A stretch of DNA of 64,000 nt from Dehalococcoidia bacterium (GCA_964291495.2 OZ219871.1:800001-864000); one strand, 5' to 3'; counted from the stretch's first letter, positions 3,176-50,729 are shown. The notes: generated by a model not told the origin, from the letters alone. Program-made: numbers and translations.

Positions 3176-3199
3176 TCACCACTGCACGAACATGGGCAT
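3176..3199 (-). other. Left att junction: displaced copy of the dnaN 3' end (MPMFVQW*)
   Basis: 20/24 nt identical to 50704-50727, with all four mismatches at synonymous third positions; similarity ends at core GGCAT (3195-3199 / 50723-50727). Confidence 0.9.
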
Positions 3200-3296
3200 C
3201 GACGCTCGACATTCACAAACCTGAGCGGGCGTACGTGCCCTTCCGGAGGACGTTTGCGCGGCCAGTCAGCGCCGCCACCCGCAAGTCCTGAGGCAA

Positions 3297-3314
3297 TCTC
3301 TCTCTCTCTCTCTC
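3297..3314 (+). repeat. (TC)9 dinucleotide tract
   Basis: Seen directly in the sequence. Confidence 0.8.
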
Positions 3315-3494
3315 GCTGGATTGCCGGCATGACGACGTGCTCGTGCAAGTAGGGTGCGCTCCGGTTCTGCGTGGAGCTGTCTCTCTGAGCGACCGAGAAC
3401 CCGTGCGCCGCTAACCTCGACTACACTTGAGACCCCGGCTACCAGTAGCGCGTCGTGCGCTGCACCACTGGTGATCACCCACTACAGAGATGGC

Positions 3495-4607
3495 ATGCCT
3501 GTGTCCAGCGACCGTAGCGAGCCGAACGAACTCGGGTCAGTCGATATCGAGTGGGGCGTCGATATGGACACGATGTCCTTCACACCCACGGTATCCGGCG
3601 CCTCCGGTCAGGCGATCAACTACCGGGGCCGTTGCCAGGGTTGTTGGGGAAGCTTGGTTGGCAGGGTCGACGAACACCATGTCTGGACGGGGATAAGGTG
3701 CCGCGTGTGTGCGGAGACTGTCGTAGGCACGAAGGCTGCTGAGGAGGAGCGCAGGCTATCGATGGAGCTCTTTGGCAACGTCTTCAGGATGGAGTTCGGT
3801 TCGGACTCGGCCTACGAGGAGGGTCCGTTCGCCTTCAAGGTGTTCCCTAGCCTAGATCGGTTGACCGAGGAAGAACTCCGATATCGAGTCGCCGCCGCCA
3901 CTTCAAGGATTACCCGGAGCCAAGCTCGGTCTCACCTCACGAGGAAGGCGTTCCCGCTCGGTTCGGCCGGCTGGCTCTTCCTTCAAGCCAAAGTCTTGGT
4001 GTCGGGAGCGCCCGCCGAGCCTAGCCTCCGCACGCGGTTAACTGTCGGCTTTCCACAGGTAGACTTTAACGATGACGGTGCAGTTGCTGCGCGGTTTGAT
4101 ACAGCAAGAATGAGCCAAGACCCTGACTCCGACAGGCAAACTATGCTCAGTGTACTGGGGTCCAACATGCGCGATGCCATGGTGTCCGCCTTCTGTTGTG
4201 AACTCGCCATGAAGGCGATCTGCCTTACCTTCGAGGACATCGCGCCCAAGTCCCATGACCTCCATGAACTCTTCACCCATCTTCCCGAACAGAGCCAGGC
4301 TCGAGTCAAGGCAGACTACTCGGAGATTGAGGCGGTGCTCCTGAGAGAGCGACAGACTTTCGGGGCGTGGAGATACTTCGAGAGGGATTCCGAGGCCAGG
4401 GGGATGGGCGCCATGATCAATCCAATCAAGGCATCGGAGCTGAGCCGGGCCGCGAGAGTGATCCTCGACGAGGCGGAAATCATGGGCCTCAGTGGGAGAA
4501 TCTCGCTAGACACGCGACAACGAGTACAAGAAGCCCACGGATCGCGGAGGTACGACAACACAGTCGACGCAAGTGTACGGGGCACCGAGCGGCCACCTAG
4601 ACCCTAA
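3495..4607 (+). CDS. Zn-ribbon + HEPN-like domain protein
   Basis: CQGC...CRVC near the N-terminus; C-terminal AFCCELAMKA...KSHDLHELF...WRY pattern typical of HEPN helical domains. Confidence 0.6.
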   Translation: MPVSSDRSEPNELGSVDIEWGVDMDTMSFTPTVSGASGQAINYRGRCQGCWGSLVGRVDEHHVWTGIRCRVCAETVVGTKAAEEERRLSMELFGNVFRMEFGSDSAYEEGPFAFKVFPSLDRLTEEELRYRVAAATSRITRSQARSHLTRKAFPLGSAGWLFLQAKVLVSGAPAEPSLRTRLTVGFPQVDFNDDGAVAARFDTARMSQDPDSDRQTMLSVLGSNMRDAMVSAFCCELAMKAICLTFEDIAPKSHDLHELFTHLPEQSQARVKADYSEIEAVLLRERQTFGAWRYFERDSEARGMGAMINPIKASELSRAARVILDEAEIMGLSGRISLDTRQRVQEAHGSRRYDNTVDASVRGTERPPRP

Positions 4608-4684
4608 TCATCTCCCGATGCCCAGCTGTCGAGGCCCCTAGCGAGACTGGCCAGCAGATCCGTGTCGCGGATTGCGATCCAACG

Positions 4685-6175
4685 TCACGCTTCCAGCCAC
4701 TCGTCAGCGAGTGCCTCAGCATGCTCAGGTCTTCCCGCCAGAATGAGTCCTACAGCTTCCCGATACGGGGCGAGCGCCCCGTCCATACTCCTTGGGTGCT
4801 GGACGACTAGGCGAGCTATGTCGCCTGGCTCGAGCTTCAGTAGACCCTGCGGATATTGCCGGACCAACTGGGCCCTCGATTCGGACGTAGTTGAGGAGAG
4901 CATCGCCAGGCACCAAGCGGCCTGCTCATCAGGGCTCGTGATCCCAGGGAACCGCACACCGTAAAGCGTATTCGAGGCTGTGAGCCCCGACTTGCGATTA
5001 AGCGCCACCCAGGGCCTCGCGACCGACATGCCCGTTACGAAGCCGTCGAACGGTTCGGGGATCGGGACGCGATACCAAGGATCGCGGTCTCTGACCTTCA
5101 TGGCCTCCCGACGGCACCCGCCTTCGTCCTCAGGAAGGTCCAGGTATGCGCGAACAGCTGCGTGCGAGAGATCTTCCTCCTCCGGCCAAAAGAGCCACAC
5201 ACGCTCGCCGGCATCCCAAAGCCCAGTCCAAGCATCTTCGTCGATCTCCGAGCCGATGATGTGCTGTGCCTTGGATACGACCGGTCTGAGGACGGAGCGC
5301 GGGAGCCCGAGCGCGAGTCGCTGGGTCTCGTTGAGCAGGAAGAAACGTGCATCCCCGGTTACAGCGCCGACGCGGATCTGAGCGATTTCGCCAAACCGGA
5401 CCTGGTTTTCAGCGAGACACGACTCGGTGGAGCGCAGCCCACTACTGGTCACCGCCAAGTCGGGCGTGCAGACGGCTTGGCTTAGTGCAGACAATGTCCG
5501 ATGTCTGATCACTTGTGCTCTGCGCCGGGGCTCTCGTCCGAAACCGCGGCCAACGAGCAAGACGGAACCGTCGGCGACTGTCTCGAACATCGGGACGGAG
5601 ACGCGGTGCACGTCGAGTTCCTCGAATGATGACTCACAAATGCTCCTGAGTGGGCTGGCGTAGTTCGCGTACTCCCAGGCAGCCGGCAGGATGTAGGCCA
5701 GAGATCCGCCAGGCTTCAGCAGTCGCATGCCGGCAACGAGGAAGGCCACCCAGTAGTTGGCTGTCGCCGAAATGCCGAACCCGTCGAGTCGTGTCTCTAG
5801 GGCCGGGCGTGACAGAGCCTCCTCGAGCTCGCGAAGCCGCACGAAAGGAGGATTGGCTATAACGCGATCAAACCGCCGGTCGGTCCGCTGCGCCCAGCTC
5901 AAGAAATCAGTACCTAGCAGGTTCTCCACGCCGATGCTGTTCAGCGTAGGTAGGTCTGCCTGCAAGTCGATAGCCAAGATCGATTCGGCGGGAACACCTG
6001 CTCGAAGAACGGCGGCAATGAGCTGACCGGACCCTGCGCTCGGGTCGAGCCAAGAGGCGGCTTCTGCCGGGCCCACGGCCCGGACCAAGGCGTCGGCCAG
6101 AAGATCAGGGGTGTCCGCCATGCCCTTGTCCGGCGGGACGGCGACAGTTCGTCGTTCCCGCTCTGCGCTACTCAT
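4685..6175 (-). CDS. N6-adenine DNA methyltransferase (gamma class, Eco57I/TaqI-like)
   Basis: Motif I LDPSAGSG precedes motif IV VIANPPF; C-terminal TRD-like region; start overlaps the upstream stop. Confidence 0.85.
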   Translation of the reverse strand: MSSAERERRTVAVPPDKGMADTPDLLADALVRAVGPAEAASWLDPSAGSGQLIAAVLRAGVPAESILAIDLQADLPTLNSIGVENLLGTDFLSWAQRTDRRFDRVIANPPFVRLRELEEALSRPALETRLDGFGISATANYWVAFLVAGMRLLKPGGSLAYILPAAWEYANYASPLRSICESSFEELDVHRVSVPMFETVADGSVLLVGRGFGREPRRRAQVIRHRTLSALSQAVCTPDLAVTSSGLRSTESCLAENQVRFGEIAQIRVGAVTGDARFFLLNETQRLALGLPRSVLRPVVSKAQHIIGSEIDEDAWTGLWDAGERVWLFWPEEEDLSHAAVRAYLDLPEDEGGCRREAMKVRDRDPWYRVPIPEPFDGFVTGMSVARPWVALNRKSGLTASNTLYGVRFPGITSPDEQAAWCLAMLSSTTSESRAQLVRQYPQGLLKLEPGDIARLVVQHPRSMDGALAPYREAVGLILAGRPEHAEALADEWLEA

Positions 6176-6938
6176 CATCCCAGGACGCATTCCAGAGAGA
6201 GTCGAGCACGCTCTTGTTGTCGCGAACCGCCGCCAAGGCCTCCCCAAAATATCCTTCCAGCAAGTGGCTCTGGGACACTCTCAGGGAACCCGTCCAAGCG
6301 GGTTCCCGCCGGATATTCTTGTAAGCGTCTGGGTAGAACGTCGCTGCGACAAGCTCGGACGCAAGGACTAGGTCCATCGGCATATGGAGCATCCGTGGCA
6401 CGGAGAGTGCTTCCGGGAACCAATGCAGTTCATCGGGCCGCGCGTTGCCGCCGACCTGAAGGTGGTAGTGCGGACCAGCCTGGCCCGAGTTCGCGAGGTC
6501 AAAGTGAACCCTCAGCATGACACGGCCGGTGTCGGGGTTGGTCTTGTGTTCTAGAGCGGGTGCATCCCACTCCTTTCTGAAGTAGACCTGGGGCTCAAGG
6601 CTCCACACGCGTATGACGACGCGCAGATCAACCGGCCGTTCGGCCGGTTCCTCCTCCCAATAGGCGCTCAAGAAGAGGTCGACACGGACATCGAGGCCGT
6701 TCACCATCGTCTTCGCGAATCTCAGGGGGTTGTTGGGACCTATTCGGAATCCCCACGGGCGCGTTGGCCTCTCACGCCGCCCCTGCTGTTGGCTCACGTC
6801 GAACGCCTCCTTGGACTCAAGCAGCATCGACTTCGCTTGTACGATCACAGCCCCGGCGCCGTCATCGAGAATCGGTCGGAATCGGCTGTCGATGGTTTCC
6901 AGGCTCTGCTGAACCTGACCCGCGGTGATCCCCATCAA
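6168..6938 (-). CDS. Hypothetical protein, DUF2290-like
   Basis: RVHFD...GPHYHLQVGG...PR..HMPMDL motif; coupled to neighbouring genes; family assignment from memory. Confidence 0.55.
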   Translation of the reverse strand: MMGITAGQVQQSLETIDSRFRPILDDGAGAVIVQAKSMLLESKEAFDVSQQQGRRERPTRPWGFRIGPNNPLRFAKTMVNGLDVRVDLFLSAYWEEEPAERPVDLRVVIRVWSLEPQVYFRKEWDAPALEHKTNPDTGRVMLRVHFDLANSGQAGPHYHLQVGGNARPDELHWFPEALSVPRMLHMPMDLVLASELVAATFYPDAYKNIRREPAWTGSLRVSQSHLLEGYFGEALAAVRDNKSVLDSLWNASWDDE

Positions 6939-8002
6939 ATGGCAGCCCGGATCTCTTCCAGGCGAGCCCTGCTTGCTGCCTCAACATACATTTCTTCGAC
7001 TTCATTGCTCTCGCGGATGGCTCTGAATGAGACGCGCGCTTCCTCCATTACAGGAGGTCGCGCATCCGGCTGATAGGGGAGCGAGGTTTCGATTCGGACG
7101 GGAACGCCGAGCACATGACACACCGTGTCGGCAGGACTACTGCCAGTCTCCTCGTCAGCGGACGGATCTAGCTCTAGGTCAAGGCTCTGGCCCGCAGCAA
7201 GGCGAAACCCCTCGCGCACTCCCCGTGCCGGATCTATGGATGCACACAATCGGCTCGCGATGTTGAAGAGAGAGTGCCGCCACCACCGCTGCTGCTCTTC
7301 CGAGAAGGGCCCTCGGTAGGTGGCGGGCTGCAGCAACACTTGGACAGCGTGCTGCCTGAAGCTCTCCAGCGAGATGCCAAGCGCTGTCGCTGCGTGTAGA
7401 TCGTCGTATAGGACTCCGGGATAGCGGAGAAGAACCGAGCGAAGCCAGTGGGCAACCTCGAACACTCTCCATCCGTCGCCTGGCGGTAGCGCCTCCAGGG
7501 CGTACCTCTGGCCAGCTTCATCTGTGTCGAGAAGTTCCAGCAGCGCCGACGCGGAGTGTTCCGGGGTACTACGCAGCGTTTGATACCCTCGGGCAAGCGA
7601 AACCAACCGCGCATGAGTACCGTCCGCGTCAGTCTCAAGCTCGGTGTCCTTGAACATGATGTCATCGAATGCCGCCCCGGTTAGGACGGTACGCTCCATT
7701 TGTGTCCACTTTCCAAGATTGCTTCTAGTAAGCAATACAATGGGTAAGTCCGGCTTTATCTCCCTTATTCGGGCGGCCAATGTCATCCCAAGGTACGGTG
7801 CGAAAGTTCCGTTTTCCTGTTTCGTATCCAACTCGTAATCAACAAGGAATAGATCTGCGTCGGCGTCAAGTAGAGGAGACATATCGAGATCAATCGGAGG
7901 TGCGAGAGGAATGACTTCAAAGTCACCAGCACAGATTCTCTCAATCAGCGCTGGAAGTGTAGTTCTGTCCTGATCGTCGACTAAGACTAGGTTGAACGTC
8001 AT
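6935..8002 (-). CDS. Response-regulator receiver domain fused to an unknown C-terminal domain
   Basis: VLVDDQ...FLVDYEL...LTR...FK receiver signature; ATGA overlap with the kinase gene. Confidence 0.8.
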   Translation of the reverse strand: MTFNLVLVDDQDRTTLPALIERICAGDFEVIPLAPPIDLDMSPLLDADADLFLVDYELDTKQENGTFAPYLGMTLAARIREIKPDLPIVLLTRSNLGKWTQMERTVLTGAAFDDIMFKDTELETDADGTHARLVSLARGYQTLRSTPEHSASALLELLDTDEAGQRYALEALPPGDGWRVFEVAHWLRSVLLRYPGVLYDDLHAATALGISLESFRQHAVQVLLQPATYRGPFSEEQQRWWRHSLFNIASRLCASIDPARGVREGFRLAAGQSLDLELDPSADEETGSSPADTVCHVLGVPVRIETSLPYQPDARPPVMEEARVSFRAIRESNEVEEMYVEAASRARLEEIRAAI

Positions 8003-10224
8003 GAATGTCCTCTAAGCGGCGCTACGACCTCGACGGTAGTTCGCCAAGGACTAGATGATGGTACGATCTCAACATCGCCGCCCCAAGCCTCTGCCAAGTC
8101 ACGGACTATCTTAAGGCCAAGACCGGTTCCTATCCCCAAAATAGGATCTGGCTGGCTCGTGGTAAAGAAAGGTTCAAATACAACATCCCTATTCTCGGGA
8201 GGGATGCCAACACCGGTGTCATGCACTCTGAGCGTGAACGTATCCTTCGTCATTTCCGCCTCCACGCGCACCCGACGCTCTGGGACGCCCTCCCGGACTG
8301 CCTTAAACGAGTTCGTCAGAAGGTTGAGCAGTACCGCGTACATCTCGGGCTCGTAGAGAGATGGTGTGCGCACAGCTGGTGGCACCTCGTTCTCTAGAGT
8401 GATGCTGAAGTGGTCTAAGTACTTGGCGAAGCCTCGCTCCAAGTTCTCGACCAACGGACGAACGGCGCGCGATCGCGGTCGTGTACGGGCTTCCGGGGCC
8501 AACAAGAGCCCTACCAGCGAGCCCTGGTCGAACGCCATCGTTGACCAAGACCGAAGATCGTCGAGTGCTTCCTGATAGCCGTCGAGATGTTCAGGCGGCA
8601 CATGGGTCGCGAGCAGCTCAAAGGCATCGCCAATTTCTCGGAGTTGCCTTGCCATGGTGCGAAGCATGTGATCGAAGACGACCACGGTGGTGCCGGCCGA
8701 AGCGAGTACGCGCAGCATCGACAGCTCCGAGGCTTGCGCGGCTGTCTCCTGGCGGAGGAGCGCCTCGGCCTCGTCGAGGGATGTCTCGATGGCTCGCCTT
8801 GCCTCATCGGGGATGGCCGCCTCGTGAACGACCGCACTCCGCAGGGACTGTAGAGCCTGGGCCACGCTCGCAGCTCCGTCCGAGTCGCCCGTCTCCCGTG
8901 GCCGATCGCGAGCTACCGCCGCCGCCTCGCGTGCGCGGCAGACCGTCATCCAGTCGATACCGTCTCGCACGAACTGCTTGAGCTGCTGAAAGCTGTCGTT
9001 TTGGACCAGCCGATCTCGGCCGATGCTCACCGCCAAGCCGGGGTTGTTCTCCCGGGAGATGGACACGGAGCCGAACAACTGCATATTGCCCGGCAACGAC
9101 AGCATTGGTCGATCGAGCCCTCCCGCTTCCGTCTCAAGCCACTTGGGAAGTTGAGCCTGCCTCCTGGCACGCTCTTGATCGAGGTCCAGCCAGTCGTCTC
9201 CCGGCGAACCGTATGAGAATACCTGGAAGCCGTCCAAGTAGACCCTGACCCCGCCTCTCGCACGTCCCAGGTCTCTCGCTTCCCTCAGGTTGTACCCTGA
9301 GCCCCTGAAACGCCCCCCCTGGTAGACCATCATTCGGATAGTGAAGGCGACTCTATGCAGGTCGGGAAACGAGCGCTCGTGCGGTTTGTGCTGAAGCAGA
9401 ATGTCAGTGTCAAGGAGATTGAGTTCATACTGGGGTTCCCCTCGATCGGTCACCGTGCCGGTGAGCAGCGCCCAAGCTGCTTCTAGGAACGGCTCCCCGA
9501 TGGCCCCCTCGAATCTTGGAAACTCTGGCGCGAGGATCTGTACCTCGAATCCTGGGTCAGCTTCATGGTCGTGATTCCGACGTACGTACCCGCCAAGTTC
9601 ATCCAGGTTCATCAAGTCACGGAACTCAGCCTGAAGCTCGGCCAGGTCCCCTTCGGTCCAACCATCTTTGAGTCCACTAAGGCGTAGGCTCGTTCCAGTT
9701 GGAAGCTCGTCATCGAGGAGCTCACGCGTAACGCTCGATGTCACATCGGCTAGATCGCGACCAGGCTCGAAGTCCTCCCAGTTGAACTCGGCCCTGATGC
9801 GCTCGGAGCCGCCCGACACGCTTGAAGTCGATTCGAGGGACAACCGAGACGCCAGCCGTCCACATGCGAATCGCCCTATGCCCTTCGCGCCAGTCCTCGG
9901 CCTGCCGAATCGCGTCGACCGCGCGTTTATCGTTGCATCGTTCGTCGCGATCCGCATCCAGCCCCGCTTCAGGGCCTCCAGAGTCATGCCCGAACCGTCG
10001 TCGAGCACCTCGATCGAACCCCGTGGACCTTTCACGTCCTCGAAACTCACAACGACCTCGGTCGCGTCGGCGTCGTAGGCGTTCTTGAGCAGCTCAGCGA
10101 GAGCCACCGAGCGGCGAGCGACCAGCCGTTCCCCCAACTCGATGAGCAGCGCAGCGTCGACATCGAAAGCTAGGCTGGTGGTTTCGCCTTCAGGCATCTT
10201 CTGTCCAGCCCTACGCGAAGTCAT
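7999..10224 (-). CDS. MORC/MutL-like GHKL ATPase fused to a histidine kinase
   Basis: N-terminal ELLKNAYDADA/DDGSGM/GAKGIGRFA; C-terminal H-box FDH, N-box NLLTNS, HDTGVGI, FEPFFTT, GTGLGL. Confidence 0.88.
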   Translation of the reverse strand: MTSRRAGQKMPEGETTSLAFDVDAALLIELGERLVARRSVALAELLKNAYDADATEVVVSFEDVKGPRGSIEVLDDGSGMTLEALKRGWMRIATNDATINARSTRFGRPRTGAKGIGRFACGRLASRLSLESTSSVSGGSERIRAEFNWEDFEPGRDLADVTSSVTRELLDDELPTGTSLRLSGLKDGWTEGDLAELQAEFRDLMNLDELGGYVRRNHDHEADPGFEVQILAPEFPRFEGAIGEPFLEAAWALLTGTVTDRGEPQYELNLLDTDILLQHKPHERSFPDLHRVAFTIRMMVYQGGRFRGSGYNLREARDLGRARGGVRVYLDGFQVFSYGSPGDDWLDLDQERARRQAQLPKWLETEAGGLDRPMLSLPGNMQLFGSVSISRENNPGLAVSIGRDRLVQNDSFQQLKQFVRDGIDWMTVCRAREAAAVARDRPRETGDSDGAASVAQALQSLRSAVVHEAAIPDEARRAIETSLDEAEALLRQETAAQASELSMLRVLASAGTTVVVFDHMLRTMARQLREIGDAFELLATHVPPEHLDGYQEALDDLRSWSTMAFDQGSLVGLLLAPEARTRPRSRAVRPLVENLERGFAKYLDHFSITLENEVPPAVRTPSLYEPEMYAVLLNLLTNSFKAVREGVPERRVRVEAEMTKDTFTLRVHDTGVGIPPENRDVVFEPFFTTSQPDPILGIGTGLGLKIVRDLAEAWGGDVEIVPSSSPWRTTVEVVAPLRGHS

Positions 10225-10296
10225 GATGGCTGTCGCAAGACTACCTCACGGACGGCACTGCTTCTTCGCGAGCGATAATCGCTGACTTGCTCTCGC

Positions 10297-10304
10297 AGTA
10301 TACT
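10297..10304. promoter_or_regulatory. Palindromic AGTATACT giving a TATACT -10 box on both strands between divergent defence operons
   Basis: Lies in the 131-bp gap between 10224(-) and 10356(+); no convincing -35 found. Confidence 0.4.
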
Positions 10305-10355
10305 CTTTGCCGTGCCTACGACCGCAGCTCCTCCCCATAGCACGAGGCATCTAGG

Positions 10356-11396
10356 ATGACGACTGCCCAAACTCAGTCCCACCTCCAGCGGCATCAGCTC
10401 GAAGCCTGGGTTCCCGACGGGCTGGGCGGGTTCAGCGATGAGCAGACCGCCATCCCGAGCATTGCCCGTGATCCCGAACTCACCGCGAGGATCTCTGATG
10501 CGGTGGAGCGTATCCCCACCTCACACCGACTCTACCTCGGTGACTCGCGCGACCTTTCGGAGATCGAGTCGGGCAGCGTGCATCTCGTCCTAACATCGCC
10601 GCCGTACTGGACACTGAAGGAATACAGGGACTCCGCTGGTCAATTGGGATCGGTCGTCGACTACGAGCGCTTCCTCTCCGAACTCGATCGTGTGTGGCGC
10701 GAGTGCTTCAGGTTGCTCGCCCCTGGGGGGCGCCTCGTTTGCGTCGTGGGCGATGTTCTGCTGTCCCGCCGACGGAACAACGGCCGGCACGTGGTCGTCC
10801 CGCTGCACGCGTCGATCCAGACCCACTGCCGTAGCCTAGGTTTCGACAACCTTGCCCCGATTATCTGGCACAAGATAGGGAACGCCGATTACGAGGCCGG
10901 CGGCGGCGGCTTCCTCGGGAAGCCGTACGAACCGAACGCCATCGTCAAGAACGACATCGAACATATCCTCTTTCAACGCAAGCCAGGCGGGTACCGGAGT
11001 CCCTCATTCGCCATGCGGCTGATGTCGGTCATTCCGGCGGAGGATCATCGAAGGTGGTTCCGGCAGGTGTGGACGGATGTGACCGGGGCCTCCACCAAGC
11101 TGCACCCGGCCCCGTTCCCCCTGGAGCTGGCAGACCGGCTGGTCCGCATGTTCAGCTTCGTCGGCGATACGGTGCTCGATCCCTTCCTCGGTACGGGCAC
11201 GACGAGCCTGGCCGCGTCGCGCAGTGGACGTAACAGCGTAGGCGTGGAGATAGCTGACGACTACCTCAACCTTGCCGCAGCCTCCTTGCGGCAAGAGGCG
11301 CTCCATCCCCACCGACGGATGGAGATTGAGGTCACCGAGCTGGGTAGCGCTAGTGCAGTCCCCGATCTCACGGATGAGGAAGTCCTGTCACCATGA
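10356..11396 (+). CDS. Site-specific DNA methyltransferase, beta class (N4-C/N6-A)
   Basis: Catalytic TSPPY precedes HPAPFP and DPFLGTGTT. Confidence 0.9.
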   Translation: MTTAQTQSHLQRHQLEAWVPDGLGGFSDEQTAIPSIARDPELTARISDAVERIPTSHRLYLGDSRDLSEIESGSVHLVLTSPPYWTLKEYRDSAGQLGSVVDYERFLSELDRVWRECFRLLAPGGRLVCVVGDVLLSRRRNNGRHVVVPLHASIQTHCRSLGFDNLAPIIWHKIGNADYEAGGGGFLGKPYEPNAIVKNDIEHILFQRKPGGYRSPSFAMRLMSVIPAEDHRRWFRQVWTDVTGASTKLHPAPFPLELADRLVRMFSFVGDTVLDPFLGTGTTSLAASRSGRNSVGVEIADDYLNLAAASLRQEALHPHRRMEIEVTELGSASAVPDLTDEEVLSP

Positions 11397-19296: not shown

Positions 19297-19494
19297 TTCA
19301 AATCTCCTTCTTGTGGTAGTGGTTGGTGTCACTTGTGGGGGTAGCGGTGAGACCGCCACCCGGGCGTAGACGACTGCGGGGCCGCCCCGGAGGACGGCCC
19401 CGTTCGCGCTCCCCCTCGGGGAGCGGCTCTTCAAGCCTGGGTCTGATGCTGCGCTCGATAGGCGCCTCCTTCCTTCGGTGGATTGCCGGGCCGC

Positions 19495-41385: not shown

Positions 41386-41582
41386 TGACGAATAGAAAGC
41401 GGCACCCGCCGGGAGGGACTACGATTGTCGAAGGCCACACTCACGGGGCTTCGTGCCCGCACGACCATCGCCAGCTTCCAAGCGCCGACCACGACTCACA
41501 CCGGGCTTGCCCGCTCGTCCTGGGCCTCGCACCTGGCCTGGATGCCGCCTGGGAGGCTCCCGCTGCTCGGGAAGAAGCGGCC

Positions 41583-42689: not shown

Positions 42690-42805
42690 CGGGGTGCACA
42701 CGCACTGCTGACCCCCGTTCGGTGAGCGGCGAGCGCAGGCCAATCCCGGACCGGACAACGAACTAGCGGTGGCGCGGAGGTCCATCAGATGGATCGATCA
42801 GATGG

Positions 42806-42886
42806 TTGCCCGCGCTGGTGGCTCCATGCTAGGTTGCTGTCATTGACGCCCTTACCGGTGGAGCATAGGAGGGGGCCAAAGCGATG
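42806..42886 (+). promoter_or_regulatory. Outward-facing promoter + RBS + ATG at the edge of the invertible segment
   Basis: TTGCCC (42806)-N18-TAGGTT (42830) with extended TG; AGGAGG at 42867; ATG at 42884 currently reads MYNSIYTL*. Confidence 0.6.
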
Positions 42887-42908
42887 TATAACTCCATTTA
42901 TACGCTCT
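42881..42908. other. dif/Xer-like recombination site B (GCGATGTATAA-CTCCAT-TTATACGCTCT)
   Basis: GTATAA/TTATAC dyad; the spacer is the reverse complement of the site A spacer. Confidence 0.75.
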
Positions 42909-43176
42909 GACATTTACGGAATAAATGCGAAGAAGAGTTTCTCGAAGTGACTGAATTGGCCTCACCACCGCGCTCCTTCCGAAGCTGGTCGTAGACCTCC
43001 TTTAGGACTCCCTTCTATCTTACTACGTGACATATAAAGCAGGGGTAACCGAGTCACAAAACGGCGGTAAACAAGACGGTGCCTTGCGTGGAACACGAGG
43101 CTCCGAGGAGCCGACGGCAAGTTCCCGCTGGTTGCCTCGCCGAACCCTGAGGGGCGAACCTACTGCCCGGCGCTTC

Positions 43177-43545
43177 TCACGCTCCGCTCCGCCTTCTCTT
43201 CCGGCGTTGCGCACGCACGAACCTGATGAAGTCGTGGATCGACTCGATGTCCTCTGGCGGGAGGCCGGCCACAGCGTCGCGGAATGACACCTCCGCCGCT
43301 TTGAGCAACTCCGACTCGACCACGGATTGCCCAAGGAGTTGGTCCGCGCTCGTCTCGCAGTGGAAGGCCACCTCGACGAGGTGCTCGTGCTGGGGCTTCA
43401 TGCGGCCTGCCTCCCAGGCCCATACGGTGTGCGAGGCCACGCCGACGAGCTCGGCGAGTTGTCGCTGAGTCAGCCCCACCTGCTTGCGTGCCTCGCGGAT
43501 ACGCCCTCCCAGGGCCTTCCAGCGGTAGCCACGGTCCCGGGTCAT
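43177..43545 (-). CDS. XRE-family (ImmR/CI-like) repressor
   Basis: RIREARKQVGLTQRQLAELVGV....V.AWEAG...P. Confidence 0.88.
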   Translation of the reverse strand: MTRDRGYRWKALGGRIREARKQVGLTQRQLAELVGVASHTVWAWEAGRMKPQHEHLVEVAFHCETSADQLLGQSVVESELLKAAEVSFRDAVAGLPPEDIESIHDFIRFVRAQRRKRRRSGA

Positions 43546-43611
43546 GCGTGGGGGCTCCTGCATCCTTCGCCTCGCCAGAAGACGCTCTCCAAGATGATAG
43601 AACACGCGTTC

Positions 43612-43650
43612 TTGACAGGCACTGTGTCCTTACATACAGTAGCACACTGT
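43612..43650 (+). promoter_or_regulatory. Sigma70 promoter with overlapping operator-like dyads
   Basis: TTGACA (43612)-N17-TACAGT (43635); ACTGT/ACAGT inverted repeats at 43621-43640 and 43636-43650. Confidence 0.75.
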
Positions 43651-43685
43651 CCAGACGCAGATCATCGAGGAGCCTACGCACCGCC

Positions 43686-43928
43686 ATGCGCCGCCGCCGA
43701 GCAGTGGTGACACTCAAGCCCGAACCGCTCTGGGAGCGATTGGCCGTCCTCGGCCGCTCCCAGAACTGGCTTGCGCGTGAGGCGGGCATCAGCCCCGGCT
43801 ACCTCTCCATGCTGGTCAACGGCAAGCGCGCACCATCGGGCCGCCTCCGTAGGCGGCTGCTGCATATCCTCGAGGTGGAGGACTTCCATGAGTTGTTCGC
43901 CCTCCGGACGCCGGCCGACGACTCGTAG
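43686..43928 (+). CDS. Cro-like XRE HTH protein
   Basis: SQNWLAREAGISPGYLSMLVNGKRAPS; GAGGAG RBS; divergent from the repressor. Confidence 0.85.
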   Translation: MRRRRAVVTLKPEPLWERLAVLGRSQNWLAREAGISPGYLSMLVNGKRAPSGRLRRRLLHILEVEDFHELFALRTPADDS

Positions 43929-43962
43929 GGCCGCTCCCCGGCTGCCCCGCTACAGCGGCCCC

Positions 43963-44238
43963 GTGATCGCCGGGCGTCGCGTGCCCTACGGCAGGGGCGA
44001 GTTGCCGGAGGACTTCCCGGACCGGCTTGAGCGCTTGAAGCGGGCCAGCGGCCTGAGCTGGGACGCGTTCGCGGAAGCCGCGGGTGTCGAACGCAAGCAG
44101 GTCCTCCGCTGGCGCCGGGGAACCGAGCCGAGCGGCAGCGCCTACCACGCTCTTGTCGAGCTGGCCCGCTGGATCCCTGGTGGCATCGAGATCCTCTTGG
44201 GCGAGGACTTCCTCGCACCCCGGACCGGAGCCAAGTGA
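43963..44238 (+). CDS. XRE HTH protein (start uncertain)
   Basis: DFPDRLERLKRASGLSWDAFAEAAGV....RWRRG..PS. Confidence 0.7.
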   Translation: MIAGRRVPYGRGELPEDFPDRLERLKRASGLSWDAFAEAAGVERKQVLRWRRGTEPSGSAYHALVELARWIPGGIEILLGEDFLAPRTGAK

Positions 44239-44501
44239 TGCCGCGTCGCCGACCGCGTCCCCGGCGGGCCTCCTACGTGTACCCCAACGACTTCGGGCAG
44301 AGCCTGGAGCGAATCAAACAGGCGTCGGGCCTCACCTGGGCGGAGCTCGCCCGTCAGCTCGGGACCACCACGCTCAACCTCTGGCGCTGGCGCAAGGGCG
44401 TGCATCCCAGTAGCCGCCACTTGCTCGCCCTCCAGGACCTCGCACGCCGCCTGGACCTCGCACACCTGCTGCCGAGAGCGAGGATCCGCAGGCGATTGTG
44501 A
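44235..44501 (+). CDS. XRE HTH protein, paralog of the upstream gene
   Basis: DFGQSLERIKQASGLTWAELARQLG....RWRKG..PS. Confidence 0.75.
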   Translation: MMPRRRPRPRRASYVYPNDFGQSLERIKQASGLTWAELARQLGTTTLNLWRWRKGVHPSSRHLLALQDLARRLDLAHLLPRARIRRRL

Positions 44502-44595
44502 ACATGAGCAGCACCATGCCCTCAGGCTGGGTCGCGCGAGGAGCACTTGCCGTCGGTCTTGGGGAACCGAAAGACAGGCGACGCGCCACCCCCGT

Positions 44596-46191
44596 TCATT
44601 CTGCAGGGGTGGTGAACGCGCGTTTCAATACCGCGTCCAGGTCTCTCCGGAACCCACCCTCGCGCCCAGCGACCGCTCCTAGAGCGGCAACGTCGTCCCC
44701 GAAAGGTTGACTTGGCCCCGGATAGAGGATGGCTGCGTACTCAACCACTCGCTGATCATCCTCTCCGCGTATTGCGTCGCGGTAGGCATGCATCTTGTCG
44801 ATGTCGGACTTCTTGGGACGTCCGGTCAAGCCCTCTTCGTCGTCATCGCGGTCTTCGCTGTCGAGCTTGTACTTGGGGTCGAACACGAACAGCCGTGGGG
44901 CCGAGTCGAACGCTCGAACTTCGAGAACGATATCGGGGCGCTGGGGGAAGCTCACCGAGCGCGGCCATCTGGTCCGACCGAATGTCCGCTCATGTGTGAG
45001 GGTTGCCTCCGTGCCTGACTCGTCATGCCGGTACCGCACGAGCGGCCTGCCCCCGGGAAGCACTTCAATGAAGAGTGCCGCTTGCCGCCGGCGGGACAGG
45101 CGCTCCTCAACAACTCGGAAGCCTCGTTCACCAGCCGCCTGGGTCACCGCGTCGACCAGCTCGAGCAAGCACCACCGCTGGTAGAGGTATGGGAGATTCT
45201 CCAAAGGGGCGTCGAGCGCATCGTCTTCAAGATGCACAGCGACGCTGCGTCGGAATTCGACCAGTCCGTCGAGAACGGCGCGATACTCGGGTCGATTGAG
45301 GAGCACCATCGTTAGGACGATGGGGAGGTCGCGAGGTGTATCAACCTCTGCCAGGAATGTGGCGGCACGCTCAGCGCTCCGGAGCTCGTTGCCCAGCGCC
45401 TCGAGCTCGGCGAGCACTGCCTCACGCTCGACGACCTCGGCGAGAAGTCGCCGGATCCTCGTTGCAACCTCTCGGGCGAAGGTCTTCAGGAGCCGGTTCT
45501 CGTACACATCGGCCGTGTGTCTGACTCGCTGATCGATGAGCTTGCGCAGCTCACCCTCTTCATTGACGTTGCCGGCTGCGGCAACGGCCAATGCAAGGCG
45601 TGCTGGTTGGGGGCGGCGGACGCGGTCCGCTCGCATCCATACGTCGTCGTTGCGGAAGATGCGATACGGATCTCGCGAGATGCTTCGGAGCGCTTGTGCT
45701 AGCCCCGGTCGTCCGGACGTCCCGCGTACAGCCCGCCGCAAGCGCAGGAGCTCCTGCGCAAGCGTGGACTCGCGACGCGGAAGCAATCGCAGTCCTTGCA
45801 GTGCCCCTAGGCGCTGGAGCCCGACCGCGATCGACGTTGGCAAACCTGACTCCAGAGCGTCTATCGTGCCCGCAAGAGCTTCTCTGTTCAGCTTCCCTGA
45901 CCGAATGGTGAAGGCGATCGAAGCCGAACCGGATGGCGACTCAAGCTCGATGAGGTAGTTGCCTGGCCCCGAGCGCGGCCACTCGACAGACACCCCGCCC
46001 TTCCAGGAGGGGGTCGCCTTCGCACTGCCGAACGCCTCTCCCTGCAGTTTGAGTTGCGCGCCCTGTGCTTCCCACTCCTCTGGGGTGACGCCTACCTCGA
46101 GCGTCGACGGCTCCCACTCACGGGGAGTGTCTATCGGCTGGCCCGACGCATCGACAAACCTCAGCTCAGGCGAAGTAGCTGACTGAACCAT
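44596..46191 (-). CDS. McrC-like DUF2357/PD-(D/E)XK nuclease
   Basis: DVYENRLLK; YQRWC; RPDIV...FDPKYK; KMHAYRDAI. Confidence 0.85.
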   Translation of the reverse strand: MVQSATSPELRFVDASGQPIDTPREWEPSTLEVGVTPEEWEAQGAQLKLQGEAFGSAKATPSWKGGVSVEWPRSGPGNYLIELESPSGSASIAFTIRSGKLNREALAGTIDALESGLPTSIAVGLQRLGALQGLRLLPRRESTLAQELLRLRRAVRGTSGRPGLAQALRSISRDPYRIFRNDDVWMRADRVRRPQPARLALAVAAAGNVNEEGELRKLIDQRVRHTADVYENRLLKTFAREVATRIRRLLAEVVEREAVLAELEALGNELRSAERAATFLAEVDTPRDLPIVLTMVLLNRPEYRAVLDGLVEFRRSVAVHLEDDALDAPLENLPYLYQRWCLLELVDAVTQAAGERGFRVVEERLSRRRQAALFIEVLPGGRPLVRYRHDESGTEATLTHERTFGRTRWPRSVSFPQRPDIVLEVRAFDSAPRLFVFDPKYKLDSEDRDDDEEGLTGRPKKSDIDKMHAYRDAIRGEDDQRVVEYAAILYPGPSQPFGDDVAALGAVAGREGGFRRDLDAVLKRAFTTPAE

Positions 46192-48427
46192 GCTCGTTGA
46201 AACGAATGCGCATGCGGCGTGCCTTTTCCGCACTCAGCGGGAAGCGCTCCCCGCATAGTTCGATGAAGCCCGCCAAGGATTGCTCGATACGTGGGTCGAT
46301 GCCGTGTACCTTCGGCAGCAGCTTCTGAAGCATCTGTTCGTCGAGAGCTGCCTCAACTTCCACCCCGATCGCCTCGGCTTCTTCTACGTAGTTTGTAATG
46401 TCGTCGATCACCCTGAACGCGAACGGCGCGACCTCATGCAGCGTGTCCCACGCAGACAGCAAGGCTTCGGCAAGCGGCGAGTCGCCAAGGTGCCCCTGAA
46501 TCGCCTCTCGCGGCGCTTCAAGTTCAACCAGCTGTGCCCGGTCGTAGACTTTGTCGGCGAACCCATGTGTGGTCTCGTCCACGTTGACGGTGCCGACGAA
46601 CCGGAGGTTCGGCGTGAGCCACACTTGCTCCTCTCCCAACTGGAGGGCCACCTTCGTCTCGCGTTGCCGGACTTCGAGCGCGGAGAGGAAGGTCGCGAAG
46701 TAATACTCAACGCGCGCAAGATTCATCTCGTCGAGCACGAGGTAGTAGGGAACCGCCTTCCGGCCCGCCGCATTCGCTGACTCCCACTCGTTGCCCGCTC
46801 TCCGTAGGAAGTCGCTGAACTCTGTGTCGTAGTAGGCCTCCCGAAGCGGGTTGAAATAGCCGAGCAGGTCCTCGTTCGTCGTCCAGTTGGGGGCCACCGC
46901 AACAAGGCACTGTTCGCCGGCGACAGCGCGCGCGTATGCCTGTGCGAGCCAAGTCTTCCCGGTCCCGGAAATGCCAGAGAGGATTACGAAGCCACGAGAC
47001 CGCAGCGACAAGTGCAAGCGTCGAAGCGTTCGGTCACTGATGACGAGACCCTCAGCGTCGATGCGCGACCGAATCGTTTCAAGGTCCGGCTCAACATAGT
47101 CAGCTGCCGCTTCACTCTGAACCTCTGGGTCGATCGAAACGCCCTCAGCGAGCTGCCGGAAACTGTCAGAAACCTTGGAGGCGAAGCCTTCAGAGAGCGG
47201 GTACAGATACCCCTGGTTGACGGAGCCGCGCCGATTGAATGGCCCGCGCTCCTCCTGACGCCACTCGATCGGTATGTCTCGCAGCGACACGGGGTCACTG
47301 AGTGCTTCCACGTGTACCTGGGCAAGCCTGCCATCGGGTTGCCACCCCTCCTTGGCCAACGCCGCGGGGATCTGCGAAAGCTCAGCGGCCTCTGCAACAC
47401 TCGAGACCGCTCGGATGTGCCCCGCCCAGTAATGGAAGACCCTATCGCCGACCGTAAGGTCGGCCATGTTCCGATGATGAGCTAGCTCCCTATCGCCCGA
47501 CTTGACCGGGGCCCACAAGTAACCCCCCTCGATCTCTTGTTCGTGCGTACCTCCTTGGTTCACCCACCAGTGGCGCCTCACGTGATCCGTCGACGGCTTG
47601 TCCTCGACGGCCTCTCGCTTCACTCGCTCCACCGTATGGACAAACTTCGACACATCACCCTGGACCTGCCCGCCGTCGAGGTCCGTGACCAAGGCGAATC
47701 TCCTGTTCTCTCCACCATCGTCGGCGACAATCTCGGAACCTTCGTAGCCGTCCCAGAAGGCACCGGGGCCGATTCCTGCTCGTCCTCCTCCAATCCGGCC
47801 TCGGTGAAGGAGTAGCGTATGTCCGGACTCAACCTCGCGTGCGAAGCATCCACCGATCCGCCGGTTCACCCCCGCAAGTGGTGAGTTCACCTCGCAGGTA
47901 ATCGAGGTCATGCCGCCGGGGCTTGGCTCCGAGGTCCCAAGCGCGTTCCAAAACCGGTTTCCCTCCGGCGCGACGCGGGACGCTAGCCAGACACTCTCGG
48001 CCGCAAGCCAGTAGGCAGTCTCCTCGACGGAGCCGCCCTGGAAGCCGAAGCGAACACCGTCGATCGGGACGGTTCCCCGCCGGAAGGCTCGGGCGAATGC
48101 TTCCTGAGCCTCTTGTATCTCGTCCACTGCCGAAAGCACGACCGCCGTAGGCGAGTCGAGCTGCGCAAGATTTGCCCTGGCGGCAGCGACGTCTTCGAAG
48201 TTCCAGAACTCGTAACCATTCGTGTTCGGAGAGGCGCGGCCTGGGTTGGCGCGGGTAATGACTGCCATAGCCGCGCCACTTGGCGAGGTGTAGGCACCAA
48301 CGCCATCAACCTCGTATTGACTGCCACCGCCAGGTCCGCGGACGATCCGACACCGATATTCGCTGCCCATGTACCCGGCGACCAGGACTACTCCGGGCGC
48401 TAGGAGTGAGCGTTCTTCTTGCTTCAT
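46166..48427 (-). CDS. McrB-like AAA+ NTPase with RAMA-like and EVE-like N-terminal domains
   Basis: GISGTGKT, LDEMNLARVEYYF, GTVNVDETT; N-terminal SPSGAA..V...NGYEFW; WWVNQG...GYLWAP. Confidence 0.88.
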   Translation of the reverse strand: MKQEERSLLAPGVVLVAGYMGSEYRCRIVRGPGGGSQYEVDGVGAYTSPSGAAMAVITRANPGRASPNTNGYEFWNFEDVAAARANLAQLDSPTAVVLSAVDEIQEAQEAFARAFRRGTVPIDGVRFGFQGGSVEETAYWLAAESVWLASRVAPEGNRFWNALGTSEPSPGGMTSITCEVNSPLAGVNRRIGGCFAREVESGHTLLLHRGRIGGGRAGIGPGAFWDGYEGSEIVADDGGENRRFALVTDLDGGQVQGDVSKFVHTVERVKREAVEDKPSTDHVRRHWWVNQGGTHEQEIEGGYLWAPVKSGDRELAHHRNMADLTVGDRVFHYWAGHIRAVSSVAEAAELSQIPAALAKEGWQPDGRLAQVHVEALSDPVSLRDIPIEWRQEERGPFNRRGSVNQGYLYPLSEGFASKVSDSFRQLAEGVSIDPEVQSEAAADYVEPDLETIRSRIDAEGLVISDRTLRRLHLSLRSRGFVILSGISGTGKTWLAQAYARAVAGEQCLVAVAPNWTTNEDLLGYFNPLREAYYDTEFSDFLRRAGNEWESANAAGRKAVPYYLVLDEMNLARVEYYFATFLSALEVRQRETKVALQLGEEQVWLTPNLRFVGTVNVDETTHGFADKVYDRAQLVELEAPREAIQGHLGDSPLAEALLSAWDTLHEVAPFAFRVIDDITNYVEEAEAIGVEVEAALDEQMLQKLLPKVHGIDPRIEQSLAGFIELCGERFPLSAEKARRMRIRFNEHGSVSYFA

Positions 48428-48724
48428 GGCAATGTCCGGTCAGCGGCATACAGAGGCCGCGGCAGTCAGCAGCGTACCGGTTGGGACTGCGGAAACGCGA
48501 GCGTCTGACGGAGCCAGCGCCGCATGCACGAGTACCAGAGTGCTCCGACCCTGCCGTTGCTGTGCTCAAGCCTCGCGGCGTGGGGAGGGCACTTCAGCTA
48601 TGAAGTCCCTCGCGGGGGATTCCTCTCGCGTGCCCGCTGCGCGACGCTCGCCATTCACGTTCGGAAGGCGACACGACGGATGTGTTCACTGTCGGACTCA
48701 TCAAACGGGGGCGAGAGCAGCGAC

Positions 48725-48964
48725 ATGGAGGAGACGCAGAACTCCGGGCACCCGAGCGCCGGCGACGAAGCGTCCGAGGACGAGATGACAGGACCGGTGG
48801 CGCCGAATCGCTATGCGGTCGTGCTCAAGACCGAGTGGCGGACCGGCCCCCGCACCCGCGCCTGGGACGAACTGTGGCGCTGGCTGCTCTCAGACGCTCT
48901 CCCTGACCCTCGTCAGTCCGGCATCCCTCGGTCTGATGGCGATGGGGAGCAGGACACGGCCTAA
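48725..48964 (+). CDS. Small protein upstream of the integrase (possible directionality factor)
   Basis: Short ORF with Trp-rich AWDELWRWLL; function inferred only from position; start uncertain. Confidence 0.45.
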   Translation: MEETQNSGHPSAGDEASEDEMTGPVAPNRYAVVLKTEWRTGPRTRAWDELWRWLLSDALPDPRQSGIPRSDGDGEQDTA

Positions 48965-49145
48965 CCGCTCCCGAACTCTCGCGGTCCGGTTGCCCGGAGG
49001 CTTTGGGCAGCGCGAGCCTTGCATCGTCCCGTGGCCTGGTGAACGATTGGGTCCGACCTCCCCGAGTATCGAGTCGGCTGGCACCAGAGGGCTCAGGTGC
49101 ACGAACGAGCAGCGAGAAGCCCCGGCCTCAACATGGGAGATGGCA

Positions 49146-50729
49146 ATGCGAGCGATCGTCTATTCACGCGTGTCGACCGACACACAAGAGCGCGACGGCA
49201 CTTCACTTGATACGCAGGAGCGCGCGTGCGTCGAACTCGCCGAGGACCGTGGGTGGCGCGTAGTGCGCTGCGTCCGCGACGCCGCCAGCGGAGGGGCGCT
49301 GGAGCGCGACGGCCTGGACGAACTGCGGGCGGCGTTGCAGCGGGGTGAGGCTGACGTCGTCGTCGCGTACGCGGTTGACCGCCTGTCGCGGAGCCAGAAC
49401 CACATCGGGATCCTGTTCGACGAGTTCGAGCGCGCCGAGGCGCGCCTCGAGTTCGTGACCGAGCGCTTCGAGGACACCGCGGTCGGGCGCTTCATCCTCG
49501 CCGCGCGCGCGTTCATCGCCGAAGTGGAGCGCGAGAAGATCGCGGAGCGGACCATGCGCGGCAAGGAAGAGCGAGCGAAGAGCGGGCGTATCCCCCAGGC
49601 GTTCGGCCGGGGCTGCTACGGGTACACGTACAACCCGGAGACCGGGCGCCGCGAGATCGATCCCTATCAGGCGGCGGTCGTCGGCCGGATCTTCGTGCGG
49701 TACGCGGCCAGCCGCAGCTTCTCGACCGTGGCCAACGAACTCAACGACGCCGGCATCCCTGCCTTCTCGGGAGGGCGCTGGTACGGGATCACGATTAGAC
49801 GAATGCTCCTCAACGAGGCGTACATCGGCCGCACTGTGTATCGCAGAACGAAGCGGGTGCGAGTGCGCGCTGCGGGAGCGCGCAGGCGCACCCGCGTGAT
49901 CGAGCGGCCCGAAGAGGAGCACATCGAGATTCCTGGCGCGACCCCGCCGATCGTTGACACCGAACTCTGGGATCGCGTTCAGGCGATCCTCAACGACCCC
50001 GAGCGAACGAATCGGCGCTCCACCGCGAAGCGCCAGTACATGCTGAGTGGCCGGCTGCGCTGCGGGCTCTGCAGCAGCGCGATGGTAGGGCAGACGCTCA
50101 CCTCGAAGGGTAAGACCTACTCGTACTACCGCTGCCGGCACGCCTACACCCGAGTCACCGGCCACCGCTGCGAGTCCCGCTACATCCGGGCGGAGGCGCT
50201 TGAGCAGGGGACTAGGGCTGAGGTGCGCAGTGTGCTCACCGAGCCCGAGCTTGTCCTGCGCGAGCAGCGCCGACTTGGCGAGACCGCACCCGACCCTGAG
50301 GAAGTCGAGCGGCTGGAGTCGGAGATGACCTCGCTGCGGAAGCGAGAGGAGCGGCTCGTTCGGCTCTTCGGCTACGACGAGGTGGACGGCGACGTAGTGC
50401 GTTCTGAACTTCGCCAGTTGCAGGGTCAGCGCGAGCTTCTCGCCAGCGAAATGGACGCCCTCACAGGTGTGGGGTCAGCGCTCGGTGCGGACGTTGACGA
50501 GGGTGACCTCAGACGGACCTGTGGCGCGATCGCAGAGCTCCTGGACGGCGCCGGACCGGAGGATCAGGACCTTGTCCTAGAGACGGTTCAGCTACAGATC
50601 ACGGCAACTCGCGATGAAGTGACGCTGGAAGGCGTTCTCCCGGTCGACGCGCCAGAATCTATCAGAACACCTCGTAAATCTAGTCAAAACGACCAGAAGT
50701 TTATCACCATTGAACAAACATCGGCATGA
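49146..50729 (+). CDS. Large serine recombinase (integrase)
   Basis: YSRVST catalytic Ser, DRLSR, recombinase domain, Zn ribbon CGLC...YYRC...C, coiled coil. Confidence 0.95.
   Translation: MRAIVYSRVSTDTQERDGTSLDTQERACVELAEDRGWRVVRCVRDAASGGALERDGLDELRAALQRGEADVVVAYAVDRLSRSQNHIGILFDEFERAEARLEFVTERFEDTAVGRFILAARAFIAEVEREKIAERTMRGKEERAKSGRIPQAFGRGCYGYTYNPETGRREIDPYQAAVVGRIFVRYAASRSFSTVANELNDAGIPAFSGGRWYGITIRRMLLNEAYIGRTVYRRTKRVRVRAAGARRRTRVIERPEEEHIEIPGATPPIVDTELWDRVQAILNDPERTNRRSTAKRQYMLSGRLRCGLCSSAMVGQTLTSKGKTYSYYRCRHAYTRVTGHRCESRYIRAEALEQGTRAEVRSVLTEPELVLREQRRLGETAPDPEEVERLESEMTSLRKREERLVRLFGYDEVDGDVVRSELRQLQGQRELLASEMDALTGVGSALGADVDEGDLRRTCGAIAELLDGAGPEDQDLVLETVQLQITATRDEVTLEGVLPVDAPESIRTPRKSSQNDQKFITIEQTSA

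Follow-up and report, generated by a model that had tools for sequence, protein, structure and literature searches.

A large serine recombinase gene and a conjugative element at the end of dnaN, the sliding-clamp gene, in a Dehalococcoidia bacterium

The end of dnaN and the integrase gene

The stretch of DNA analysed here (64,000 nucleotides of one strand from a Dehalococcoidia bacterium, GCA_964291495.2, OZ219871.1:800001-864000; hereafter the window, with positions counted from its first letter) belongs to a metagenome-assembled genome (MAG) of 3.08 Mb, with a completeness of 93.7% and a contamination of 3.68%. It contains the gene dnaN for the beta sliding clamp and, beside it, an integrative conjugative element (ICE) of ~47.5 kb (3200-50727), delimited by two copies of the end of dnaN (tails) and recognised by its gene content and by a backbone common to an element of the related genome G001. 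The dnaN gene on the minus strand and the gene of a large serine recombinase (LSR), the integrase, on the plus strand overlap tail-to-tail over 26 nt (50704-50729), where the minus strand at 50704-50727 encodes MPMFVQW plus the stop, i.e., the end of dnaN, and the plus strand encodes the integrase end TIEQTSA, with the stop codon TGA at 50727-50729. This overlap represents the P-type arm of the right attachment site, attR. The distal copy of the tail, MPMFVQW with its stop, lies on the minus strand at 3176-3199, where it forms the B-type arm of the ICE's attL; it differs from the tail at dnaN in 4 of 24 bases, all of them in third codon positions and synonymous. Both the dual coding at the right junction and the same peptide with four synonymous differences at the left one had been noticed in an earlier reading made from the DNA alone (the sequence-only reading), and both were confirmed, the former from the two open reading frames (ORFs). 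The fully degenerate 21-nt back-translation of MPMFVQW gave three matches in the 3.08-Mb genome, in one orientation and all on contig C5, against none for the reversed control pattern, and the tail is therefore repeated more often than expected by chance; the reversed control had no matches in 401 genomes of the class either.

The clamp gene, identified by Pfam, by PDB alignment and by a clamp search of the whole assembly, occupies positions 50704-51837 of the minus strand (377 aa), its long ORF being 50704-52080, with the clamp proper starting from the Met at 51837. The product has three DNA_pol3_beta domains (PF00712, PF02767 and PF02768, each above its Pfam cut-off), and the solved clamps align to it as far as residue 373-374 of 377, the best PDB match being 7evp (E 2e-53, residues 1-373 of 377). 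It is the one clamp gene found in the assembly, 93.7% complete, by a protein search and two Pfam family searches over its whole length. The genes upstream of dnaN are those for an aminotransferase of class III (hemL), a HAD hydrolase, ALAD (hemB) and a HemD/methylase, and not dnaA, which is located ~470 kb away on the same contig. The idea that such surroundings (hemL, hemB and hemD upstream, no dnaA) mark a spare paralogue was ruled out, this being the sole clamp gene found in the assembly; the single copy, together with what is generally known of the clamp, suggests that dnaN is essential here. The clamp end MPMFVQW and its stop are identical in most of the relatives displayed, including those without an integrase match beside dnaN, and the 21-nt tail pattern was found in 339 of the 401 Dehalococcoidia genomes sampled, a tally that includes the unpublished genome G259. 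In the clamp of E. coli, the last residues line the pocket for binding of partner proteins, and such a pocket would explain why the C-terminal peptide is restored exactly.

Two further observations concern dnaN genes themselves. The 81 codons 5' of the dnaN start that form the first part of the long ORF (51838-52080) are a dispersed repeat, with 57 further partial matches (43-93% identity, query residues 1 to ~79) on contigs C1, C4, C5, C6 and C7, and look like a REP/MITE-like intergenic repeat. The dnaN of G006, a genome of the same genus (loci L042/L043, G006:C1:928628-929911) gave two overlapping alignment pieces, covering query residues 1-210 and 169-377, within one open frame of 544 aa, which suggests an internal duplication or insertion in that clamp gene.

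The integrase gene is positioned on the plus strand at 49140-50729 (529 aa). Its long ORF starts at 48813, and the ATG at 49140 is the likely start because the Resolvase domain begins at residue 114 of the long ORF. The protein carries the Resolvase (PF00239; E 3e-33, 115.4 bits at a cut-off of 23.3), Recombinase (PF07508, 85.1 bits) and Zn_ribbon_recom (PF13408, 47.2 bits) domains, the latter two also above their cut-offs, so that both the domains and the length, within the ~450-700 aa by which large serine recombinases are recognised, are those of the group. The motif YSRVSTDTQ is present in the translation; the position of the catalytic serine is our assumption. The PDB matches were the gamma-delta resolvase, the catalytic domain of the TP901-1 integrase, YokA of SPbeta and an integrase chain of 500 aa. 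No second ORF with the Resolvase domain was detected by Pfam among the 46 ORFs scanned, and the only other serine recombinase of the genome is on contig C8.

The crossover zone common to all four att sites was located by comparison of the tails and arms and corresponds in attL to GGCAT at 3195-3199. The last base by which the two tails differ is the one directly left of GGCAT, and to the right of it the element arm (CGACGC...) and the body of dnaN (GACGAC...) part at once; the junctions of genomes G018 and G001 set the same limit. The crossover is placed by these comparisons within the 5 nt of GGCAT, which read ATGCC on the dnaN strand and correspond to the Met-Pro codons of ...VVMPMFVQW*, since the tails differ up to its left edge and the arms diverge at its right edge. 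The element replaces the wobble base of the Pro codon, MFVQW and the stop. By analogy with the large serine integrases of phages, the integrase would recombine attP with attB in one direction only, at a central dinucleotide of 2 nt. The half-sites of other serine integrases are ~20 bp long and, with half-sites of this length, the whole attB would be contained in the last 14 or so codons of dnaN. That the integrase itself recombines the sites, the identity of the central dinucleotide and the present mobility of the element are what we infer.

A consequence of attP lying inside the integrase reading frame is that the integrase has no stop codon of its own: the T of its TGA comes from GGCAT and the GA from the dnaN side of the crossover. 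The same 26-nt arrangement, with endings such as TIE(Q/R)TSA*, is common to seven loci of the family survey described below, at 44-100% identity; at the remaining loci of that survey the frame of the last aligned residues continues for 40-252 nt beyond the start of the tail before a stop, these values being a simple frame extension and not curated gene models. In the excised form, the integrase ORF would continue for 30 codons into the opposite end of the element, and an extension of exactly 30 codons is also found in two diverged left arms of the type borne by the present ICE ('class 1', see below), with 0 codons before an arm of another type ('class 2'). The differences between two arms compared over the 30-codon extension are distributed as 6/4/8 by codon position, with 6 of the 15 changed codons synonymous, which is only suggestive of a coding constraint.

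Related loci, older islands and the contents of the element

The targeting of dnaN is family-wide. In the genus, dnaN was matched in 16 of 18 relatives, and in 9 of these 16 an LSR homologue lies tail-to-tail with it; the homologues belong to at least three clades (~73%, 49% and 44% identity), to which a second locus of genome G003 (L044) adds 68%. In a scan of genome contigs, 11 of 15 loci had dnaN adjoining the integrase, 3 showed the integrase, the tail (in one case a variant) and then the end of another element, and the last one, a distant match (29%), had neither dnaN nor tail. In the family survey, limited to the best 30 loci at 44% identity or above, the dnaN tail stands at the 3' end of the integrase in 25 of 30 and dnaN itself in 19 of those, the other 5 loci ending at contig edges or holding truncated genes. 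The weak LSR matches (29-35% identity) of genomes G001 and G015, which sit elsewhere in these genomes, serve as an internal control. Outside the family, an LSR (34, 48 and 56% identity) adjoins dnaN in 3 of the 7 multi-tail loci sampled from other families of the class. The sequence-only reading had called for a survey of integrase homologues for adjacency to dnaN, and this family-wide pairing, along with the presence of the tail across the class, supports its proposal of a dnaN-specific large serine integrase with a conserved attB.

Two loci of other families deserve mention on their own account. Contig C1 of genome G345 has eight copies of the dnaN tail, in both orientations, over ~860 kb, one of which adjoins dnaN with an LSR of 56% identity (L080); tails scattered in this way may belong to further elements, elsewhere in that genome, that have kept attP intact, or may result from rearrangements. 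In locus L036 (G026), a second dnaN tail of 26 residues, 88% identical, is found at 3159-3236, ~530 bp downstream of dnaN; this tail encloses a small ORF, likewise present behind dnaN in L034, and the locus thus has a very small insert at the same site.

The left terminus of the ICE (3200-3325, plus strand; the 'class 1' P' arm) is homologous to the left termini of related elements, and it is the comparison of two species that bears most directly on movement. The dnaN genes of genomes G001 and G018 have only 77% nucleotide identity, and upstream of the gene no similarity was detectable; yet their integrases are 97.6% identical, and over 470 nt the left ends of their elements reach 99.1%, the similarity ending at the tail. 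The element ends being far more alike than the dnaN genes of the hosts, a recent movement of this relative is indicated, by which excision and conjugative transfer of the present ICE are indirectly supported. The G001 element shares with the window the core of the ICE (13577-35564, 78-88% nucleotide identity), a regulator segment and the integrase. By a degenerate pattern for the attL junction, the class-1 terminus was found to adjoin dnaN tails with six different left flanks, and in OZ253575.1 the class-1 terminus and an integrase 79% identical to the present one are ~49 kb apart in the expected orientation.

Left of the ICE, the remains of older elements were recognised. Positions 3102-3175 (plus strand) are what is left of int-B, an older large serine recombinase gene from another clade (~50% identical to the integrase of the present ICE), truncated to its 3' end, and form the right-end scar of an earlier element. 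By blastn, the scar is 86-92% identical to the int-B 3' end, tail and flank of four or five relatives with the full-length integrase: the segment 3102-3251 is 86% identical to the G018 junction, in which the full-length int-B is followed by the tail and the class-1 arm, and the segment 3095-3204 matches the int-B end of four relatives at 88-92% identity. The segment 2052-3109 is 97% identical to DNA located 343 bp downstream of dnaN in G009, and the tail at 3176-3199 has the codon choice of the tails beside int-B in G013 and G002. Judged by these matches, the tail of the left junction (tail 2) is not the ancestral chromosomal end and was supplied by the older, now truncated int-B element, so that the clamp tail has been replaced more than once. 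The third tail is outside the window, at C5:782440-782460, 20.7 kb left of tail 2, and on its left flank 80 nt match, at 92.5%, the integrase end and tail of a third clade, int-C. The 20.7 kb between tails 3 and 2 contain genes for an amidase, peptide ABC transporters, an IclR regulator, a molybdopterin oxidoreductase, an enolase-superfamily enzyme and a luciferase-like monooxygenase, and no integrase was found in this island. The three tails, with the int-B and int-C scars directly left of tails 2 and 3, are those of at least three generations of stacked islands, each insertion having replaced the tail of the clamp gene. Two or more tails occur in 8 of 19 genomes of the genus and in 49 of 401 genomes of the class, the class figure being counted by eye. 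The 20.7-kb island (G000:C5:782440-803199) also has two peptide-permease genes duplicated in tandem (L062 2517-4428 and 4558-6442), the two copies having nearly the same Pfam scores.

The gene content of the ICE was determined with a GC3-based ORF filter followed by Pfam and PADLOC scans. Its conjugation and replication core (13551-35627, GC3 of 0.82-0.96, host-like) encodes an SF2 helicase (13551-15791), a DUF6094 methylase (15980-17017), SSB (18892-19434), a DnaG-type primase (20426-22024), TrbL/VirB6 (25222-26556; TrbL, 34.6 bits), a pilin of the type IV secretion system (T4SS) (26690-26971; T4SS_pilin, 46.9 bits), a VirB4-like ATPase (29062-31362; P-loop_TraG, 41.6 bits, and AAA_10, 38.1 bits), a coupling protein (32002-33984; TrwB_AAD_bind, 25.2 bits at a cut-off of 20.5) and a Replic_Relax relaxase (33981-35627; 37.2 bits at a cut-off of 25.3). 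The marks by which an ICE is recognised, namely the terminal integrase, the flanking repeats of the target, the VirB4-type ATPase, the coupling protein, the relaxase and parts of the mating pore, are all present, several of them with modest scores, and the T4SS parts, coupling protein and relaxase between the two tails bear out the sequence-only reading of the element as an ICE. The candidate explanation of the region of 13.5-35.6 kb as chromosomal DNA between two elements, suggested by its host-like GC3 (0.82-0.96), was ruled out by the T4SS, relaxase and primase genes and by the backbone common to the G001 element.

The core is flanked by two low-GC cargo arms delineated with Pfam and PADLOC, both of them rich in defence genes. 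The left one (3354-13159; GC 0.60-0.63, window average, and GC3 ~0.7) contains two type II restriction-modification modules, one of them XhoI-like. A type II methyltransferase is encoded at 4685-6247, and an N6/N4 methylase (10356-11396) is accompanied by an XhoI-like endonuclease (11393-12328). The same arm has a HATPase protein (7999-10224) and a pair made up of an 8xMP membrane protein and a ThsB-like TIR protein (12306-13159). The right one (36409-48427; GC ~0.60-0.67) includes a PPDK_N/fn3 protein of 1658 aa (36409-41385), a tyrosine recombinase (41583-42689), HTH regulators (43177-43928) and a PDC-M26A-like AAA protein (46166-48427). No tRNA or tmRNA gene was detected in the window by ARAGORN.

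Proposed mechanism and alternative explanations

Taken as a whole, the locus is with high probability the site of a T4SS-bearing ICE that is moved by a dnaN-specific large serine recombinase and restores the end of dnaN from the antisense strand of its own integrase gene. The integrase would recombine attP, contained in the last codons of its own gene, with attB in the last 14 or so codons of dnaN, with the bases downstream of the crossover (the wobble base of the Pro codon, MFVQW and the stop) displaced to the far end of the element; a synonymous copy, encoded antisense to the C-terminal codons of the integrase, takes their place. The clamp protein is unchanged because this copy is synonymous, and the rebuilt end of dnaN would remain a usable attB because the element-borne copy imitates the target, by which serial insertions become possible. 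The generations in this genome are, outermost first, the int-C scar with tail 3, the 20.7-kb island ending in the int-B scar with tail 2, and the present ICE with tail 1 and dnaN. A more far-reaching proposal, which we put forward tentatively and with more doubt than confidence, is that the integrase exists in two forms reporting the integrated or excised state of the element and that attR, by its mimicry of the target, stays available as an attB, which would make the end of dnaN a class-wide landing pad where islands stack and the older ones decay to scars.

Several observations weigh against the mechanism proposed. No excised circle, empty site or recombination assay has been seen for this ICE, whose mobility is deduced from the comparisons above; the scan of the genome contigs with an attP-like junction pattern, the metagenome collection lying outside that scan, found no free circle, the tailed matches being explicable as tandem-array or attL junctions. 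The imperfect dyad symmetry around GGCAT, claimed for the rebuilt attP in the sequence-only reading, did not hold: the best dyad of the rebuilt attP of this window pairs 8 of 20 arm positions, below the mean of 9.8 for the best scores of 500 shuffles (95th percentile 11). The rebuilt attB reaches 13/20, centred on the AT of GGCAT, and the class-1 attP sites of relatives a borderline 11-12/20, centred on the GG. Among the 16 genus relatives with dnaN, 7 showed no LSR match within 1.5 kb downstream (tblastn, E <= 1e-5); by eye, a short A-type scar remains in G009 among them, and G004 and G008 look like the ends of C-type integrases. In other families, 3 of the 7 multi-tail loci have dnaN but no LSR within ~2.2 kb, and one further piece has neither. 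The surveys overlap in their genomes, and kin are not independent of one another. The MAG is incomplete (93.7%, with 3.68% contamination), and a second dnaN may lie on unassembled DNA. Finally, an att-like motif inside the element at 3326-3380 could mark a different true left end.

The alternative that survives best, one we regard as unlikely but not negligible, is that of a fixed fossil, i.e., an element integrated in the past via the serine recombinase that has since lost excision and transfer. It agrees with the lack of any circle or empty site seen, with the decay of the older neighbours at the locus to scars and with the large cargo arms of foreign composition flanking the core. However, the integrase ORF is unbroken and retains its three domains, the core genes have open frames and 78-88% identity to their counterparts in the G001 element, the ICE occupies the newest position beside dnaN, and the ends of the G001 and G018 elements, far more alike than the dnaN genes of their hosts, point to recent movement.

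Somewhat less probable is a later left end, with the ICE proper starting at ~3326-3331, the preceding 126 bp (3200-3325) being the stump of a different element, for the most part deleted, that lies between the int-B scar and the ICE, and the circle junction of the sequence-only reading being 126 bp off. The motif at 3326-3380 (plus strand, 'class 2'), 126 nt inside the element, begins with 14 nt, GGCATGACGACGTG, identical to the dnaN junction at 50723-50736, and its remainder has homologues in the P' arms located right behind dnaN tails in other genomes (loci L064, L047, L056 and L058). The distance from the tail to this motif varies among related ICEs (139, 338 and 1052 nt), and one class-1 element has an intact small gene where G001 and G018 have a truncated one, as progressive decay of a stump would have it. 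The opposing evidence is that the 99.1% identity of G001 and G018 starts exactly at the boundary of the tail and the class-1 arm, with different left flanks, by which the unit moved between the species starts with the class-1 arm, and that the class-1 arm of OZ253575.1 is ~49 kb from the 79%-identical integrase in the expected orientation. These two facts and the six different flanks support the left end at 3200 of the sequence-only reading. The class-2 motif may be a fossil attL captured by accretion, and both placements of the left end can be true historically, as an accretion-captured stump that now serves as the terminus.

It is very improbable that the element was inserted by the tyrosine recombinase at 41583-42689 instead of the serine one: its Phage_integrase domain is recognisable (54.1 bits), but the gene lies in a low-GC cargo arm absent from the G001 element, ~8 kb from either junction, and across genomes it is the serine recombinase gene that goes with the dnaN tails, the junction being formed by the end of that gene. 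That the repeated tail is a chance repeat or an artefact of assembly, as might be feared of a MAG, deserves practically no credence in view of the three pattern matches against none for the control, the zero control matches in 401 genomes, the same architecture in many independent assemblies, including single-contig ones, and the position of the window within a contig of 1.66 Mb.

Known systems and significance

A dnaN-targeting ICE is an element of a known kind, namely a site-specific one inserted at the end of an essential gene, which it restores, and it stands close to the ssrA islands of Dehalococcoides. Full-text literature searches, with supplements outside their range, returned no paper naming dnaN as an integration target; an apparent match for 'into dnaN' in a mobilome paper was rejected as the tool name DNAnalyser. 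In the ssrA islands, DsiB, a serine recombinase of ~540 aa, mediates integration at the 3' end of the single-copy essential gene ssrA (McMurdie et al. 2011, PMC3146451). A direct repeat of the gene end of ~20 bp is found at each boundary, and the islands occur in tandem, some of them without an integration module; they are described as mobilizable rather than conjugative, and their six-gene integration module includes a small second serine recombinase, DsiA (PMC3146451). The present element is of the same class of bacteria and shares with the islands the use of a serine recombinase, the 3' end of a gene as the target, the boundary repeats and the tandem stacking. It differs from them in the target, which is the protein-coding dnaN here and a tmRNA gene there, and in being conjugative; no DsiA-like second serine recombinase was present among the ORFs of the ICE scanned, the other module genes not having been searched for by name. 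The integrase of the islands is beside attL, with no overlap with the target described, whereas here the integrase overlaps dnaN.

In staphylococci, CcrA/CcrB of SCCmec act at the 3' end of rlmH (orfX), the gene being left intact, with direct repeats and tandem or composite elements (described in part in PMC3146451). The likeness consists in a serine recombinase acting at the end of a conserved housekeeping gene that is kept intact, and in tandem elements. SCCmec has two recombinases and no conjugation machinery, in contrast to the one serine recombinase and the conjugation genes of the present ICE, for which the host phylum and the target are also different; we know of no antisense overlap of integrase and target in SCCmec. 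The large serine integrases of phages, such as those of A118/phi10403S in comK, SprA of SPbeta in spsM, Bxb1 in groEL1 and phiC31, belong to the same enzyme family and have the same domain architecture. They split or inactivate a non-essential gene that is restored only on excision, whereas dnaN is kept whole here by the built-in replacement of its end. Among ICEs, SXT/R391 in prfC and ICESt3 in fda use tyrosine recombinases to insert at the end of a housekeeping gene, whose displaced end is provided by the element itself. The present element is like them in being conjugative and site-specific in a conserved gene, with the gene end restored by the element, and unlike them in its serine recombinase and dnaN target.

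With the replicative sliding-clamp gene, the short list of essential genes that serve serine integrases as landing sites gains a member, and the points of interest at this locus are the full T4SS ICE, the target conserved throughout the class, the serial stacking with scars and the integrase frame closed by host DNA. The near-identical element ends in two species and the use of the site by more than one integrase clade provide material on how serine integrases tell attB from attR, and the stacked tails with the integrase scars allow the succession of islands acquired at a single locus to be read. The class Dehalococcoidia, which includes organohalide respirers, has few genetic tools and, the target being present in 339 of 401 class genomes, these integrases are natural candidates for site-specific genome insertion in Dehalococcoidia.

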